IMG/VR virus record: IMGVR_UViG_3300038674_000192
Location: 1-42,674 of that record
DNA length: 42,674 nt
Source: a virus
Taxonomy: Duplodnaviria > Caudoviricetes
Reading direction: 5' to 3' (one strand)
Every line of letters starts with the position of its first letter. Positions within the stretch are counted from its first letter, which is position 1. The notes below the pieces were generated by a model that had not been told where the DNA came from, made no database searches, and worked only from the letters and a program-made list of their open reading frames with translations. This document shows, in pieces, positions 28,570 to 42,674 of this stretch. The position numbers and the translations under genes are program-made.

Positions 28570-28591
28570 GGTGTAGTTTTTTTGCTACACC
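28570..28591. promoter_or_regulatory. Palindromic operator-like site upstream of the Cro-like gene
   Basis: GGTGTAG-N8-CTACACC. Confidence 0.6.
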
Positions 28592-28620: not shown

Positions 28621-28833
28621 ATGTCGCAGTATCGTTTTAACGCACGACGGCTGATCCTAGATTTGGGGGGGTGCTCTAAGGTCGCCGAGATTGCCGGGGT
28701 CGTTCGCTCCACGCCGTACAAGTGGCAACAGACCGGCAACATCGGAACGGACAATTTGTGTACGATCCTCGAATGGTGTGCCCGCAACAAGGTGAAACTT
28801 GACGTGGGGCAGTACTTCGAGAGGGTCCGGTAA
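28621..28833 (+). CDS. Cro-like helix-turn-helix protein
   Basis: 70 aa; LGGCSKVAEIAGVVRSTPYKWQQTG.I HTH pattern. Confidence 0.75.
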   Translation: MSQYRFNARRLILDLGGCSKVAEIAGVVRSTPYKWQQTGNIGTDNLCTILEWCARNKVKLDVGQYFERVR

Positions 28834-28869
28834 CAGCACACACGCACAACACAACGGGCCTAAAGCAAA

Positions 28870-30852
28870 ATGGAAGAACTCAAGATAACTGACCCGCAGG
28901 TGCTGCAAGACAGCATCTACAACGAGGCGACGCGTTACATCGACAACGGGTGGTCCATCATCCCGCTTGCCCGTGATACTCGCAAGCCTCTTGTCTCCTG
29001 GGAAGTCTATCAGTCTCGTCAGCCCACCGCCGAAGAACTGGAGCGGTGGTTTTCTTTGTGGCCAAACATGAACATCGGTCTGGTGTGCGGCGCGGTGTCA
29101 GGGGTGGTCGTCCTTGACTGCGACAACGCCGAGGCCATGGCTTTTGCGGCCGAGCGTGGTTTGACTTCGCCGTTCGCGGTTCGTACCAAGCGCGGCGTTC
29201 ACTACTACTTCCGCCACCCGATGGACGGGAACCGCTACGGCAACCACGCCGGAGCGAACCCCGGTAGCGATTGGCCGAAGGTTCCGGGGCTCGACTTCCG
29301 GGGCGACGGTGGGTTCGTGGTGCTGCCGCCGTCCGTGCGGATGGACCCCAACACCGGGGAGCCGTGCTTCCAATACGCATGGGAGCCGCGCTACCTCGAT
29401 TGGGACGACTGCGCGGTGTGGAAGGGTGCGCCGCAGCGCGTCAACAACATCGTCAATCTCGACGGGTCTGAGTTCTGCTTCGATGACCTCGACCTTGGCA
29501 TGTGGCGCGCCAAGCATCCCGCCGAATATCTGTCGGTATGGGACAAAACCCGCATGCTCACCGAGGAGCGGGGGTTGATTGACGAGGGCGAAGGGCGCAA
29601 CGCGCTGCTCTGCGACTTCGCCAGCGAAGAAATCATGCGGGGGCTCTCGGGCTTCGAGTTGCGGGCGCGCTGCCTGGTCTTCCAGAACACGTTCTTCCGT
29701 GTTCCCCTGGGCGACCGCGAGTTCGAGCGCACCATTCAGAGTATGGAAGCGGCGGAGCGGCGCAATCATCCTGAGCGCTTCGATGCGCTTGGCCACTACA
29801 TCTACCATAGGGAGCCGCTGACTGCGCCGCAGCTTGAGCCCGAAGTGCAGCTGGCCACCGAACAGAAGGCCAAACTCACCCCTTTCTTCCCTCGGGATGC
29901 GGCCGTCGTTCGGTCTGCGATCCCCGATAAGTTCCTGATCGAACCGATCCTCGCGCCCGCCAGCATCACGGCGATCTTTGGCTACACCGGCCACGGGAAG
30001 TCGCTCGTGGTGCAGGGGCTGATGTGGGCGCTGGCCAACGGGGCGCGTGAGTTTGGTCCCTACCGTATCGACGCTGCGGCGCGGGTGCTCTACTTCGATT
30101 GGGAGAACGGGGCACGCACGATCTGCGACCGCGCCGAGATGTTCAATCGGATGATCGGTGATCCGGGGGAGAACCTTGGCATCTGGTCGCCCGCCCTGCT
30201 CACCGACGAGAGCATCAACATGCACACCAATGAGGGCATCATCCGCTTCTCGGAGTGGACGATTGACTTCAAGCCCGACGTGGTGGTGCTCGATACCGTG
30301 CGCGCTGCGTGGCCTGGGCTCGAAGAAAACAAAGCCGAGGCATGGACGGCGGTCAACCAGCTGGCCTTGCGCCTGCGTAATGCCGGGATCGCCGTGGTGA
30401 TCCTGCACCACGCCAACAAGCCGAACGCCGAAGGGCTCGGCCGGGAGGCCGGAAGCGCGAACCAGCTGTCCAATGTCGAATTGCAGTTGCGCGTGACGCA
30501 GCTGTTTAAGGACGAGGAAGTGGCCAAGGCCAAGGCCGGGAAGTACGACGCGGGGGTTTGGGATCGGCTGTCTCGCAAGGCCGTTGCTCTCGATCCCGAC
30601 AGTCATCTTGTGGCCGCGTTCGAGATCAGCACAGGTAAAGTTCGTAGTCGCAACGACAATCTTTCGGACAGGACCAATATCGGCTACGCTGAGCGTACTA
30701 CCGATGGGACGATGTTCGTGGTTTCCGACATGTCCAAGCGCCAATGGGCGCTTACGGCATTGATCGAAGAAGGCCGGTCCATCGAAACGATTGCGTCTAC
30801 TCTTGGCGTGAGTACGCGCGTGGTGAAAGATTGGTGCTTCGGAGGGAAGTGA
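28870..30852 (+). CDS. Prim-Pol primase fused to an AAA_25/RecA-like helicase
   Basis: WSIIPL..KP, NIGLVCG, VLDCD, GVHYYF, DFRGDGGFVVLPPS; Walker A GYTGHGKS, Walker B VVLD, ILHH; C-terminal HTH. Confidence 0.9.
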   Translation: MEELKITDPQVLQDSIYNEATRYIDNGWSIIPLARDTRKPLVSWEVYQSRQPTAEELERWFSLWPNMNIGLVCGAVSGVVVLDCDNAEAMAFAAERGLTSPFAVRTKRGVHYYFRHPMDGNRYGNHAGANPGSDWPKVPGLDFRGDGGFVVLPPSVRMDPNTGEPCFQYAWEPRYLDWDDCAVWKGAPQRVNNIVNLDGSEFCFDDLDLGMWRAKHPAEYLSVWDKTRMLTEERGLIDEGEGRNALLCDFASEEIMRGLSGFELRARCLVFQNTFFRVPLGDREFERTIQSMEAAERRNHPERFDALGHYIYHREPLTAPQLEPEVQLATEQKAKLTPFFPRDAAVVRSAIPDKFLIEPILAPASITAIFGYTGHGKSLVVQGLMWALANGAREFGPYRIDAAARVLYFDWENGARTICDRAEMFNRMIGDPGENLGIWSPALLTDESINMHTNEGIIRFSEWTIDFKPDVVVLDTVRAAWPGLEENKAEAWTAVNQLALRLRNAGIAVVILHHANKPNAEGLGREAGSANQLSNVELQLRVTQLFKDEEVAKAKAGKYDAGVWDRLSRKAVALDPDSHLVAAFEISTGKVRSRNDNLSDRTNIGYAERTTDGTMFVVSDMSKRQWALTALIEEGRSIETIASTLGVSTRVVKDWCFGGK

Positions 30853-31265: not shown

Positions 31266-32004
31266 GCGCGTTGAGGTCGCTCCGGAGCTTGCTGTAGCGC
31301 TCGTCTTCCTGGGCCACCAGCGCCGTGATCAACTTGCGCAGGCTGTCCACTTCCGTGAGGAAGTGTTTGTGCTGTTCTTCGGCCTGCTCCTGCAAAGCCA
31401 CGACCGCAGCCGTGATTTTGATCGGCCCGAACATCGCTTCACGCAACGTCACCAGCGCAGCAATGGACAGGCCAGACTCACTGGCCACCCGTTCGTCCGA
31501 GTAGTCGTTGAGGTACATCCCCTTCTCGATGTGGAAATGATCTTCGAGAAGGCCATAGGCTTTGCGCCGGGCTTCACGCGACTTGTCGGTCGGCATAAGA
31601 ACCTCGGTATAGGAAGGGGCGGGAGATTCCCCAACGACCGCAATGCGTTCCTTGAGGACGGGCGTATTGTCGATGACGCTGATCGGGTCCATGGATGGGG
31701 CCTTTTCTTGTTCGATGTGAATGACGTTGTTATCGGTGGCGACCTTGGCCAGCTTCTTGGCGCGACGTTCGGATCGCTTCAGTTCCAGACAGGCGGGGCA
31801 AAGCGCCATCTTACCCTCACCCTCTATGAGCCATCCCTTGTTCATGGCAAACTTGGCCACCACACTCGGCGGGAAGTGTTTGCGTGCCGGGATAACGAAG
31901 GTGTTTGTGCACTCACTGCACGTAACCTCCACAACTGGCTGATCCCGCAGATTGATCTTCTGTGACGATAGCCGGAATTGTCCCGTGTAAAGTTCCTTAG
32001 CCAT
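31255..32004 (-). CDS. Hypothetical protein with Zn-ribbon and possible HTH, translationally coupled to the integrase
   Basis: CSEC...GW...CPAC; YSDERVA..SGL.......RE.MFGP; start overlaps the integrase stop. Confidence 0.7.
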   Translation of the reverse strand: MAKELYTGQFRLSSQKINLRDQPVVEVTCSECTNTFVIPARKHFPPSVVAKFAMNKGWLIEGEGKMALCPACLELKRSERRAKKLAKVATDNNVIHIEQEKAPSMDPISVIDNTPVLKERIAVVGESPAPSYTEVLMPTDKSREARRKAYGLLEDHFHIEKGMYLNDYSDERVASESGLSIAALVTLREAMFGPIKITAAVVALQEQAEEQHKHFLTEVDSLRKLITALVAQEDERYSKLRSDLNALKG

Positions 32005-33017
32005 CACTCCTCCATTGCTGCTGTGAGTTGAGCCGGACCGATGTGCGCATACCGCATCACCATCCGGAGGGTGCTGTGGCCCAACAGTTTGGCCACAACA
32101 TCGAGTTGTTCGCCGCGTTCACGGAGCCGTGTCGCGAACGTGTGTCGGCAGTCGTAGGGAACAAAGCCAGAGACACCCGCTTTGTCCATGATCTCGGACC
32201 AGTCCTTGCCGAGACGATAGCCGCCACGGTAGTCGATCCCTTCGGTGGCAGGCCAGGGTGTTCCATCGGCCCGAAGGAACACCTGCTCTTTCACATGAGC
32301 CAGCGAAGTCAGTTCGTCAATCAGACGAGGGCGCAGCGGCACGGTACGCACCCGCAAGGAACCGCCCTTGAACGAAGACAGCGTAACTACACCCGTAGTC
32401 AGATTGAGGTCACGCCACGTCAAGGCACACGCCTCACCGGGGCGGGCACCCGTCATGAACAGGAACATGACCAGCGGCCGCAGGTACGCATGCGGCCCAG
32501 AGCACGCCTGGATAATCGCCCGCTCCTCTTCGACCGTGGCAAAGCGGAAACGTTCCTCTTCGACGGGAAGCTCAGGAACGTAGGGAACCTTATCGATCCA
32601 CTCACATTTGAATGCATGGTTCAGCATCGCACGCACGGGAACCAGCGCCCGCCGAATGGAGTTCGCCTTCAATCCCACCAATGCCGTTGAGACATACGCT
32701 GTGATGATGGCATTCGTAATGTCAGAGACATACCGAACATTGGCCGTGGCCAGAAAGTCCATGAAGCGGTTGAGATATCCTCGGGTGTTGGCGTCAAGCC
32801 CGGATGGCCTTGTGGCATAAGCGTGCGCCGCCGCTTCCACAGTTGTACGAGTATATCGCGATGGAGAAATGGCCTCGCGATAGATCGTGCTGAGAAAATC
32901 TTCGGCAAGGCGTTTGTTGGACTTGGTTGCTTCAAGGCCAGTGCTTCGGCATATGCGCTTTCCGCCGACGCTTCCGGACACATACCAGACCTTTCCGCGC
33001 TTCTTTACTGAAATCAT
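32004..33017 (-). CDS. int: Tyrosine integrase/recombinase
   Basis: TGARPGE, YDCRHTFAT (H-x-x-R variant), LLGHS, RYAH; N-terminal arm-binding-like KRGKVWY...RSTG. Confidence 0.92.
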   Translation of the reverse strand: MISVKKRGKVWYVSGSVGGKRICRSTGLEATKSNKRLAEDFLSTIYREAISPSRYTRTTVEAAAHAYATRPSGLDANTRGYLNRFMDFLATANVRYVSDITNAIITAYVSTALVGLKANSIRRALVPVRAMLNHAFKCEWIDKVPYVPELPVEEERFRFATVEEERAIIQACSGPHAYLRPLVMFLFMTGARPGEACALTWRDLNLTTGVVTLSSFKGGSLRVRTVPLRPRLIDELTSLAHVKEQVFLRADGTPWPATEGIDYRGGYRLGKDWSEIMDKAGVSGFVPYDCRHTFATRLRERGEQLDVVAKLLGHSTLRMVMRYAHIGPAQLTAAMEE

Positions 33018-33029
33018 ATTGCACCCCCT

Positions 33030-33058
33030 TTGACAAACACAACGACAGATGTTAGATA
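33030..33058 (+). promoter_or_regulatory. Sigma70-like promoter divergent from the integrase
   Basis: TTGACA(33030)-17 bp-TAGATA(33053), with an extended -10 TG at 33050-33051. Confidence 0.65.
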
Positions 33059-33063
33059 GGACG

Positions 33064-33126
33064 TACCGTTGTGTTGTGCCCAAACAATGCGGCTGGCCGG
33101 GAAACCGGCCAGCCGTTTGTTGTTTG
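33064..33126 (+). ncRNA. Putative trans-acting sRNA with a 5' GU-rich seed
   Basis: Lies between a promoter and a terminator with no plausible CDS. The seed CCGTTGTGTTGTGC (33066-33079) is complementary to leaders of several phage genes. Confidence 0.55.
33090..33126 (+). terminator. Rho-independent terminator (possibly bidirectional)
   Basis: CGGCTGGCCGG-GAAA-CCGGCCAGCCG-TTTGTTGTTTG; the T-tract is better on the plus strand. Confidence 0.85.
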
Positions 33127-33129
33127 TCG

Positions 33130-33756
33130 TTAGTCGATGAAGCTCATGATCGGGTGCATCTGCGACGCTTCATCCGGGCCGGAGCGATAGTAGCTGCGAT
33201 GCAGCGTGCGACGCACCAGGTCTTCGACCTGCATCATGTCGTATTCGGTCGGGATGATCCGGCGCGCGTTCAGGGCCAGGACCATCTGCTGCGCGACTTC
33301 CCTGGCCACCTGGGCGAGATACTGGCCATGGACCTGCACGAAACCACCATCGGGGAACGGCAGCGCCTGCTCTTCGGGGCCGTAGATCGGATGCTTCGGC
33401 GCGGTCTTGCCGTCTTCGGCGTCCTGCGCAAAGGGCTGCGGAACGTACATCTTGTCGGCCAGGTAGGCGTTGTCCTGCGGCAAGCCGTACAAGTCGCGCG
33501 CTTCGTCGCGCACGATACGGTCACGATGGCAACGCACCTCCGAGGCCGGAATGTTGGCCATACGATCATGGTACGGCGACAGCGACGGGGTGCCGATCTG
33601 AATGGTGGTGCGGCGACCGTACCCGCTGTAAGACCCGTAGTCGTAGCCGAGCGGGCGGCCGACACTGCGCGGCTTCGGGGTGTGGAAGTTCTCCGAGAGT
33701 TCCTTCGAGGTGATCTCCCGGATAGCTTTGGGGTCTTTGTCGAATTCGTTGCTCAT
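33130..33756 (-). CDS. Hypothetical protein
   Basis: ATG with SD AGGAG; typical codon usage. Confidence 0.65.
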   Translation of the reverse strand: MSNEFDKDPKAIREITSKELSENFHTPKPRSVGRPLGYDYGSYSGYGRRTTIQIGTPSLSPYHDRMANIPASEVRCHRDRIVRDEARDLYGLPQDNAYLADKMYVPQPFAQDAEDGKTAPKHPIYGPEEQALPFPDGGFVQVHGQYLAQVAREVAQQMVLALNARRIIPTEYDMMQVEDLVRRTLHRSYYRSGPDEASQMHPIMSFID

Positions 33757-33845
33757 GTTGTGCTCCTGTTGTGTGTGTTCGTTATTCAGTCGGCAGGCCA
33801 AGGATCGACCTGAGTTCGTTACGTATCTCCCATGAAAGCGTGAGT

Positions 33846-33875: not shown

Positions 33876-34283
33876 CTACTTCACCTGCACGTCGATGTTG
33901 GGCAGGATCGTCGCCGGGCGGAACATCACCCGGTAGTGGTAGGTGCTCACGTCCACGGCGTCCACCTGCTCCACGAAGTAGGTCACGTTGTCCGAGAGGC
34001 CGAGAAAGTGTTTCTTGAACTGGCCACGGGCGGTCTTGCAGGTCACGGTGATCTCGCCGCTCTTGTCGGTGTTACCGAGGGCGCAAAGACCCTCGATGGT
34101 CAGCATGTAGCTGTCCGTGATGCCGTTGTAGAACACGATCCGGCGGGGCACCTCGAAGTTGTCGGCGGCTTGGCTCAGGTTGCGGCTGGCCACGTCGGCA
34201 GCCTTCTCGCAGCCGGTCGCCATCGTGGCCAGGATCGCCAGCAACGACATGAGCATCAGGAAGCCCGGGCGAAACATCGTCAT
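33876..34283 (-). CDS. Conserved phage lipoprotein
   Basis: Signal peptide with lipobox ATG-C; ADVASRNLS.AADNFEV.RRIVFYNGIT and KKHFLGLSDNVTYFVEQ motifs. Confidence 0.8.
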   Translation of the reverse strand: MTMFRPGFLMLMSLLAILATMATGCEKAADVASRNLSQAADNFEVPRRIVFYNGITDSYMLTIEGLCALGNTDKSGEITVTCKTARGQFKKHFLGLSDNVTYFVEQVDAVDVSTYHYRVMFRPATILPNIDVQVK

Positions 34284-34285
34284 CT

Positions 34286-34623
34286 TCAGTCTCCGTTGTG
34301 TTGGTTCAGTTCGACGCCGGTCACGGAAATGCCACCATCGGGTTTGCCCCGCATGCTGACCTTCACCGTCGAGAGGGGACCCTCTGGAACCGGCATGTCC
34401 CGAAGGATATTGTTGAGTTTGGCGATCAGCCGCATGTGGTTGATCGTCTGATCGGCCGACGCCTGGGTCAGCAACACCGCACCACACCAGGGGCAGACCT
34501 TGCCGACGTGGCCAGAACGTCGGCCTCGGTCTTCACATCGACCTCCTCACTGTAGTTGCATCCGGGCTCATCGCAGACGAGAGCCCGGATGGAGAACTCA
34601 GCGCCCATCTTATTCGGTTCCAT
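34286..34623 (-). pseudogene. Frameshifted Zn-finger protein (CDEPGC...CPWCG)
   Basis: MEPNK...LVCDEPGCNY...DVLA continues as HVGKVCPWCGAVLLTQ in another frame. One base appears to be missing at ~34510. Confidence 0.65.
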
Positions 34624-37053: not shown

Positions 37054-37111
37054 GTCATGACTCCGTTGTGTGATGTGAGGGGGAGGCAGCGCCTCCCCCC
37101 CCCGCCGGATA

Positions 37112-39172: not shown

Positions 39173-39189
39173 GTTGACTCCGTGTGTTG

Positions 39190-39217
39190 TGGCCAGCACT
39201 AGATGTAGTGCTGGCCA
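39190..39217. other. Hairpin in the cobS leader
   Basis: TGGCCAGCACTA-GATG-TAGTGCTGGCCA, adjacent to a CACAAC motif. Confidence 0.6.
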
Positions 39218-39955: not shown

Positions 39956-39993
39956 GATGTGTTCTCCGTTGTGTGTGTTGTGGTGTTGTGGTC

Positions 39994-40734
39994 TTAGGCG
40001 TGACCCGCCGGGGTCATAGCACTGAGGTCGGCGTCGTCATTGCCGGTGGCGGTGCCTTCGCCTTTCGGCTCGGCGGTCCGCTGGATAATCTCCGAGATGT
40101 TGTCGGGCAGGCTAGAGACGAATCCATTGGCGTAGCCGATGGTGTCGCCCACCACCTCGTCGGCCATCTCCTTGAACGCGGCGGAGTCGAGGTCGATGTT
40201 CCTGGCCACGGCCATCGACGCCAGCATCCACGAGATCAGCGAACCAATGAACGCGGTCAGCTTATCGTTGTCGCCGGTCCAGTCCTCACTGGTCAGCATG
40301 CGGGAGGCGATCAGCTGCACCATCACCGAGAGGTCGGTCATGTCGTCCGCCTGGGGCACGAACACCTCGGGGAACGTCAGCTTCTGCATCTCGGCGACGT
40401 GTTCGGGGCCGATAGCGAAGGCCGACACGGGCACGGTGCCGCTGTTCTGTGCGTGCCTCCAGAACCTGTCGGCGGCACGGAACACATCGCTCAGGGTCGT
40501 GTTCGCGAAGTTCGGGGCGAGCTTGTGGTCGGCCGAGAACATCATTATCGACCAGCTCGCGAAGACGGCGTAGCCCGCCAGCTGCGTCATGGCCCTCCGC
40601 ACGTCCTGGAGCGGTGCGCCCTTGCCGCCGGAGGTGAGCGCATCGGCCAGGCCAGCGAAGACCTTGGCCACTTCGTAGGTGGCCTTGATCGTCTCCTCCA
40701 ACGCATGCTCGTTGATCGGCTCCTTCTTGGTCAT
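39994..40734 (-). CDS. Hypothetical protein
   Basis: SD AAGGA; typical codon usage. Confidence 0.7.
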   Translation of the reverse strand: MTKKEPINEHALEETIKATYEVAKVFAGLADALTSGGKGAPLQDVRRAMTQLAGYAVFASWSIMMFSADHKLAPNFANTTLSDVFRAADRFWRHAQNSGTVPVSAFAIGPEHVAEMQKLTFPEVFVPQADDMTDLSVMVQLIASRMLTSEDWTGDNDKLTAFIGSLISWMLASMAVARNIDLDSAAFKEMADEVVGDTIGYANGFVSSLPDNISEIIQRTAEPKGEGTATGNDDADLSAMTPAGHA

Positions 40735-40821
40735 CGTGAAATCCTTTTGCGTTGCGGTGTTGTGCTTGAGCCCCGCCGTCAGGTCACGGCGAGGCCATCG
40801 GTTGTTGGGACCGCTGCCCTA

Positions 40822-42238: not shown

Positions 42239-42267
42239 TTGACACGCAGGTTTTGGCACGGTACTAG
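42239..42267 (+). promoter_or_regulatory. Sigma70-like promoter
   Basis: TTGACA-17 bp-TACTAG. Confidence 0.55.
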
Positions 42268-42273
42268 CTGTTT

Positions 42274-42445
42274 ATGGAGATGGAGATGAGACGTGAGGGA
42301 TGCGGAGCAATCCCGAACGATCCAGACCCAAAGCCGTAGCGCAGGATCGAGCCAGTGGCTCGATACAAGCGGTGTCCGAGACCTTCCGAACCATACCCAC
42401 ACCGTTTCAGGTTCAGCTGCCGCGAAGCGAAAGCAGCTGAACCCT
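42274..42445 (+). ncRNA. Putative structured non-coding RNA
   Basis: Four consecutive stems downstream of a promoter in a region with no credible CDS. Confidence 0.35.
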
Positions 42446-42674
42446 CCGTAAATCACCAGCAATGAAATCCACAAATCGAAACTTACTAATCATTCACTAC
42501 ATACTCTTCTGGTTCTAAGCACCCGTGCGTCCATTTCCCAACGCACATGTTACACAGTAACACTTCCCCTCCGCATAACCCCCGCATCTCTCCCCTTCTC
42601 TCCGCATTGTCCCCGGGCCTTCGCCCCGGCCGCTTCGGGCCGGGCTTCGGCAATCTTCCGCCTCCTCCGCTTCC

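Follow-up and report, generated by a model that had tools for sequence, protein, structure and literature searches.

C4 RNA, of about 77 nt, controls an antirepressor operon under the C1 protein, and lambda OOP acts against cII. GcvB silences ACA enhancer elements through a GU-rich seed (PMC3879156). C4 of P1 and P7 is a three-stem RNA, the product of RNase P, which serves lysogeny and immunity by occluding a ribosome-binding site and whose specificity resides in a few variable nucleotides (PMC5320573). The CI RNA of P4 keeps replication genes off in the lysogen; it is processed from the operon that it controls, through premature termination at seqA/seqC (PMC4825925). P22 sar, lambda OOP and aQ, and 24B_1 of Phi24B act on phage switch genes, with one target each and mostly in cis, and the available part of the source describes no pairing with a shared leader repeat (PMC12197685); the long RNA STnc6030 of BTP1 works in exclusion and is antisense in cis (PMC7067206). 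Finally, the SAS of Cluster K phages is an asymmetric repeat found before the start codons of non-structural genes, with one 13-bp consensus throughout the cluster and, in four of the phages, a single reversed copy not tied to a gene start; the available text identifies no RNA partner for it (PMC3203893). In the literature covered, some of it in part and with most subscription journals outside it, the targets of phage RNAs are a single phage gene, a single operon or genes of the host, and neither the RNA considered here nor any phage sRNA with many targets among its own leaders is described.

The locus analyzed here, next to the integrase gene (int) of a phage, is predicted to encode an RNA that shares features with each of these systems. 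Like GcvB, it would set an unpaired GU-rich seed against CA- or ACA-rich elements just upstream of many SDs (PMC3879156), but it is encoded by a phage, is only about 60 nt long and is aimed at its own genome; moreover, the phage seed is not conserved and changes with the leader repeat of each phage, and the GcvB covariance model gave no match. Like C4, it would be a phage RNA of lysogeny or immunity that occludes ribosome-binding sites; unlike C4, it is a predicted primary transcript with one terminator hairpin and seven dispersed targets, and neither the three-stem fold nor an Rfam match to the C4 family was found. With P4 CI it would share the role of keeping replication genes off in the lysogen. 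However, the unit has its own divergent promoter, its sites are the ribosome-binding regions of separate genes, and it lies antisense to the operon rather than inside the controlled leader, between seqA and seqC and on the same strand; a seqA-like inverted copy is present in the int-strand leader. The repeat differs from SAS in being specific to each genome and in having a reversed copy with a promoter and a terminator. Rfam gave no match at gathering score for the units scanned, only four weak hairpin matches far below it.

The phage and the unit beside int

The window, that is, the whole stretch analyzed, is a virus record of 42,674 nt, with 61% GC and 74% complete. Judged by its sequence, the phage is temperate and of the CRP-810 type: core gene homology and the conserved order cobS-cobT-...-int are both found, and Roseobacter phage CRP-810 is the nearest phage by capsid (60%) and primase (43%). 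A close relative at the protein level was not found (best primase, 45%); relatives of the integrase reach at most 39% identity, apart from one fragment at 98%, and a scan for the integrase locus returned nothing. The primase is identical in a contig of 58,152 nt on record, and about 15 kb of the genome lie outside the window, by synteny probably the terminase, portal and tail-fibre region. Wastewater contigs contain near-identical strains, known from assembled contigs whose source runs, labelled RNA-Seq, are probably DNA. Phages of this family mostly carry an integrase, CRP-810 itself integrating at tRNA-Thr, and LuxR is encoded by CRP-810 as well as by 107 of 251 related genomes; a term search of the available text of the family paper did not find the word 'repressor', nor is an RNA mentioned there (PMC11288001). 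The window differs from CRP-810 in having no LuxR gene before int.

The plus strand carries the structural genes and, later, a Cro-like gene (28621), the primase-helicase gene and rusA; there is a leftward sak4-ssb-cas4 operon, and a minus-strand operon running from 42071 to 33130 contains cobS and cobT and is followed by a gap of 112 nt and then by int (33017-32004). The features at this gap, with the Cro-like gene, are:

28621..28833, plus strand: Cro-like HTH gene before the primase gene, conserved in the family
32004..33017, minus strand: tyrosine integrase gene; its read-through mRNA, if any, would overlap the RNA in antisense
33030..33058, plus strand: sigma-70-type promoter, TTGACA-17-(TG)n-TAGATA, divergent from int
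33036..33044, plus strand: 9-bp inverted copy of the seed in the promoter spacer, a possible operator half-site
33065..33125, plus strand: predicted small RNA of about 60 nt, with +1 placed at A33065 by prediction
33066..33079, plus strand: GU-rich seed, predicted single-stranded (unpaired probability about 0.7-0.9)
33090..33126, plus strand: intrinsic terminator, an 11-bp stem (33090-33115) with a GAAA loop, and a U-tract

Minor observations concern other parts of the window. An Avd gene of a diversity-generating retroelement lies at 1-660, after the tail-fibre-like end, and no reverse transcriptase follows it within the window. A second plus-strand promoter, TTGACA-17-TACTAG, lies in 42239-42500, divergent from the early operon and with no credible gene there; it could possibly serve a non-coding RNA or the missing terminase region. 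Contigs from two wastewater strains diverge from the window at 33821-33823, suggesting, from the sequences compared, that DNA between the lipoprotein gene and its neighbour starting at 33756 has been inserted or replaced. The Atlas returned no function for the genes at 31995 and 33756, attP was not located in the window, and a tRNA-Met call within the capsid gene was set aside as probably false. The gene caller placed some starts wrongly (window int, cobS of G004, primase of G019), which affects single cells of the comparisons below.

The sequence-only reading had placed the promoter, the seed and the 11-bp terminator correctly, and all of the coordinates were found again. The −35 element TTGACA lies at 33030-35 and the −10 element TAGATA at 33053-58, separated by a 17-nt spacer that ends in TGT. 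The −10 element is without a T at −7, and a stock promoter scan missed it because that scan demands this T; −10 elements without it are common in alphaproteobacteria (PMC7703639). The tail of the terminator reads TTTGTTGTTTG. The RNA is predicted to fold into the single terminator hairpin preceded by the unpaired 5′ seed, and the pair of promoter and closely following terminator is the only one in the window, both strands having been scanned. At the level of sequence, the locus thus has what is looked for in an sRNA gene, its own promoter and an intrinsic terminator in an intergenic region, as well as a seed, predicted to be unpaired, complementary to several translation-initiation regions.

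The −35, −10 and seed are identical in all four wastewater strains, with one change in the spacer, and the terminator tail is altered in one of them. In one strain the unit carries 1 change over 97 nt and its flank 22 over 264 nt (p 0.013); pooled across the four strains, constraint on the unit is not significant (p 0.09). The GAAA loop of the terminator, part of the original description, is present in the window but reads TTTC in two of the four strains, through a micro-inversion of the hairpin at 33101-33104; the loop, therefore, does not fix the strand. The hairpin itself scores as a terminator on the minus strand too, more weakly.

Read on the minus strand, the seed is itself one of the leader repeats, 48-61 nt upstream of the start of int, and it sits after a hairpin, as the cobS and cobT sites do. 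Consequently, the 14/14 match described below cannot by itself separate an antisense RNA from a repeated sense element. The repeats might work on the mRNA strand only, as ACA enhancers or protein-bound start-associated sequences, the seed being no more than the int or luxR leader copy and the divergent promoter incidental. The sense orientation of the seed in the minus-strand operon speaks for this, as do the enhancement of translation by ACA motifs (PMC3879156), the CA-rich leaders that phages lacking a unit also have, and the copy in relative G019, which is situated in the luxR leader. Against it, no start codon follows the copy in the window, int being 48 nt away, and none follows in G003, where ATA stands at the position of ATG; the scan of related loci, given below, bears further on this point.

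The inverted copy in the spacer, which had escaped the sequence-only reading, has counterparts in two relatives, G004 (10 bp) and G035 (7 bp), where an inverted repeat of like kind joins spacer and transcript. One might accordingly see the repeats as DNA sites, either stoperator-like sites for a repressor or arm sites for Int, with an inverted pair around the promoter. The repeats are indeed asymmetric, intergenic and oriented with transcription, inverted copies occur at 33036-44 and 33067-75 with a degenerate third in the tail, and within the window int borders no intergenic gap other than the one that holds the unit. The copies, however, vary by insertions of 1-4 nt, overlap the SD or AUG and occur in hairpin loops, and the tail copy is mutated in one strain. 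There is no gap-free consensus of fixed length, as stoperators would have, bulges and register differing between copies. Moreover, the record of a provirus that carries a unit, G012, ends at the 3′ end of int, so that att probably lies on the far side of int. We regard DNA sites of this kind as an extremely unlikely explanation.

Leader sites of the window seed

The sites complementary to the seed, all of which were found again where the sequence-only reading had put them, are the following:

28844..28857, plus strand: site in the primase-helicase leader, 14/14, 12 nt before the ATG at 28870, without a clear SD
33756..33774, minus strand: two sites flanking the SD of the gene starting at 33756, one of 8 nt and one of 9 nt with a bulge
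34293..34303, minus strand: site in the leader of a lipoprotein-like gene, 11 nt, covering the first GG of the SD
37063..37071, minus strand: site in the cobT leader, 9 nt, covering the GG of the SD
39180..39191, minus strand: site in the cobS leader, 12 nt with one bulge (9 perfect)
39966..39990, minus strand: repeated sites (9 nt) in the leader of an Nmad5-like gene
40757..40765, minus strand: site in the leader of the gene starting at 40734, 9 nt

Four of these sites cover the first GG of the SD, all contain ACA triplets, and the 8-nt site of the gene starting at 33756 extends to the A of its ATG. The primase leader may, in the place of a clear SD, depend on its CA tract. The lipoprotein-like gene (33876-34286) matches PF25682 and phrog_478, the latter labelled as recombination directionality factor.

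The matches exceed what chance would give. Perfect complements of at least 9 nt occur in 6 of its 42 leaders and in 1 of 916 leaders taken from 17 related genomes or loci, several of them equally CA-rich (Fisher 3e-8), and none of 2000 dinucleotide shuffles of the seed reached six leaders. Matches of at least 8 nt are found at 7 of the 22 non-structural genes and at none of the 20 structural genes of the window; cro, sak4 and rusA also have no site. By raw duplex energy the primase is first and cobS second among the 42 leaders, the lipoprotein-like gene fifth and the other four 8th-11th; two structural genes come third and fourth, above five of the seven targets. Raw duplex energies, which do not include accessibility, separate cognate from non-cognate poorly.

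Units and seeds in related phages

Loci of the family were gathered via capsid, primase, cobS and LuxR, and the gap upstream of luxR/int was read. A blind scan for a promoter, a short body, a hairpin and a U-tract within 1300 nt upstream of int returned, among 66 non-redundant loci, 5 units on the antisense strand and 0 on the sense strand. These are the units of the window, G004, L329/G035, L391 and L416; all five have matches of at least 8 nt to leaders of their own genome. The background of the scan is 4 in 930 windows, with two of the five units among the four. Six further units (G003, G012, G019, G033, G034 and L386) were recognized by eye or by a looser scan, so that a divergent promoter, a GU-rich seed and a terminator upstream of luxR/int are found at 11 of the 66 loci, in 9 lineages. 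The other 55 int loci, that of CRP-810 among them, show no unit.

A promoter scoring at least 7/12 is present on the seed strand in 10 of the 11 carriers; the exception is G003, which lacks a clear −35, and the promoter of G012 is weak. The U-tract lies solely on the seed side in G003, G004, G035, L416 and L391 and mainly so in G033; the window and G012 have one on either side, and those of G019, G034 and L386 are weak. The unit of G019 overlaps the luxR leader. Between +1 and terminator, G004 and G035, with 68% LuxR identity, differ at only 2 places.

The sequence-only reading had looked to covariation of seed and target in related phages, and syntenic units with such covariation were found: the seeds differ between phages and each matches the leader repeat of its own genome, in a set partly chosen by eye. 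The seed of G003 pairs over 13 nt across the spacer and the AU of the cobS start; those of G004 and G035 pair over 10-13 nt with int and with an HTH-like gene after int, that of G035 also with cobS and luxR; and that of G012 pairs over 10-13 nt of its CACGGAGAC repeat. The G019 seed pairs over 13 nt with cobS and the G034 seed over 12 nt with int. G033 and L416 have separate seeds, one for the cob genes and another for int, and L391 and L386 display an 8-nt seed in a hairpin loop. The sites in the carriers lie over the SD or the AUG, and in G003 and L416 the pairing at the AUG includes G-U pairs. When targets are counted by orthologue, 8 of 11 carriers have a site at cobS, 5 at cobT and 5 at int (four lineages); the primase is a perfect-match target in only one of eight examinable carriers, the window.

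In a matrix of RNAs against cognate and non-cognate genomes for the 9 lineages, permutation gave p 8e-6 (8 nt) and 1e-4 (9 nt), falling to 7e-5 and 7e-4 without the window and to 0.01 and 0.035 without the window, G012 and G019, values that flatter the case, since leader matches were part of the reason why six of the 11 units were picked by eye. Only 5 of the 9 RNAs score highest in their row with the cognate genome, because several seeds share GUGUGU. The most frequently repeated leader 9-mer is the complement of the seed in 8 of 11 carriers; in seven non-carriers examined, the top 9-mers occur in only 2-3 leaders and are mostly SD-like. CA-rich leaders as such are common in non-carriers too, for example in G002. 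Such covariation is in favour of an antisense RNA that has many targets and acts at ribosome-binding sites.

For a repeat that works on the mRNA strand only, the bias of promoter and U-tract in the 66 loci, antisense in five and sense in none, and the near restriction of specific repeats to carriers are difficult to accommodate, and we consider this explanation very unlikely. The unit very probably encodes a base-pairing RNA, and on sequence grounds these RNAs likely form a new sRNA family, by which phages silence early genes of their own via a leader repeat that evolves together with the seed.

Several observations on the relatives may be recorded here. A longer GU-rich antisense stretch upstream of luxR in G015 (C1:4100-4270), with partial matches to its own cobT leader, is a possible twelfth unit, excluded from all counts as too uncertain. 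Short promoter-terminator units antisense to the primase lie between primase and rusA in CRP-810 (L003:14452-14495) and in G001 (C1:9278-9318); no leader matches were found for either. In marine relatives without a unit (L142, L145, L156, L160, L164, L166, L201, L205 and L216), a short ORF of about 40-60 codons with an S..W..PP-like motif, possibly a leader peptide, lies between promoter and luxR. In G033, a small gene after int (L418:17948-18199) encodes a SutA RNA-polymerase-binding domain (PF20661, E 8e-12). Searched as exact DNA patterns, the unit had 0 matches in metagenome and viral contigs; a degenerate pattern of promoter plus seed had 44 viral matches, near none of which was there a gene of the family, and these were taken as chance.

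Place of the RNA in lysogeny

The sequence-only reading cast the RNA as a lysogeny repressor acting in place of a CI protein. Against this, 9 of the 11 carriers keep a LuxR-type HTH gene beside int, 55 of 66 loci of the family show no unit, the window seed has no site at cro, sak4, rusA or the structural genes, and the primase is a perfect-match target in one of eight examinable carriers. Some findings do agree with a main role in the window phage: LuxR, although before int in 45 of 66 family loci, was not found in the window; the interval from cro to the leftward operon contains no CI gene; the primase is a perfect-match target only here, and the best target; and G033, a complete carrier, is without LuxR and shows no CI-type Pfam match among 42 small proteins. 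Among the proteins of the 42.7-kb window, a search found no repressor family, a Cro-like HTH being present and about 15 kb lying outside. Those 15 kb weigh against such a role, however, as does the absence from G033 of a perfect primase site. Moreover, many of the loci without a unit have no LuxR either, and a dyad often surrounds their int promoter; thus the family has other control, perhaps the Cro-like protein and its dyad. That the RNA is the main repressor of the window phage seems to us rather unlikely, and that it is the main or only one, replacing a protein and with the seed setting the specificity of immunity, unlikely. A broader proposal, that the lineage runs lysogeny by RNA, the seed reading a drifting, genome-specific leader barcode that defines immunity groups and the RNA being the main repressor in LuxR-less phages, with the primase captured as a target, is doubtful.

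The dyad GGTGTAG-N8-CTACACC lies at 28570-28591, before the Cro-like gene. Related dyads of the type GTGTA...TACAC occur at the cro and luxR/int promoters, in CRP-810 and in marine relatives, and the dyad is likely a family operator. The homologue of the Cro-like gene in G033 matches YdaS below the cut-off.

We propose, with the balance of probability modestly on this side, that the RNA of about 60 nt blocks translation of seven early genes through their CA-rich leader repeat and so helps to keep the prophage silent. A host sigma-70-type promoter beside int would make the RNA, whose unpaired, GU-rich 5′ seed would pair with the repeat at the seven ribosome-binding regions, possibly with the help of Hfq; pairing would then block the 30S subunit at the SD, the start codon or the ACA enhancers, as for GcvB. 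There being no luxR between the RNA gene and int in the window, the RNA overlaps any int read-through mRNA, and int may be a cis-antisense target here; the relatives would target int in trans. More speculatively, the inverted repeat across the −10 in the window, G004 and G035 might let a protein switch the RNA off at induction.

The time at which the RNA would act is a separate matter. The same RNA and pairing could serve as a timer of the lytic cycle that shuts early genes and int after infection, opposing integration much as lambda OOP opposes cII. Int is targeted in 5 of 11 carriers and luxR in G035, and silencing these genes could equally favour lysis, for which reason this alternative keeps some weight; the targets are, in addition, mostly accessory early genes and not switch genes. 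Against it, the best target in the window is the replication primase-helicase, the unit belongs to the int module, and its promoter, being of host type, would need no phage factors to be active in the lysogen. We judge a lytic timer improbable. For these same three reasons action in the lysogen is favoured, and the RNA may act mainly there, adding a second layer of control to that of a Cro-like or LuxR-type protein, a conclusion that we hold with slight preference.

If this is correct, one phage RNA with a self-regulon marked by a repeat would represent a new way to silence a prophage or to time an infection, and its specificity could be read from the sequence as a code, in a widespread family for which the present analysis found no repressor of the CI type. 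The same logic, an RNA that reads a barcode of leaders, may explain the SAS of Cluster K; and wherever unexplained start-associated repeats occur in other phages, a lone reversed copy, if transcribed, may be the RNA partner. In Adephagia (JF704105), the lone reversed SAS, between gp92 and gp93 (L437:30640-30720), lies in the loop of a long plus-strand hairpin, a placement that resembles the loop-displayed seeds of L391 and L386, and it may be the RNA partner for the 16 forward copies in the stretch.
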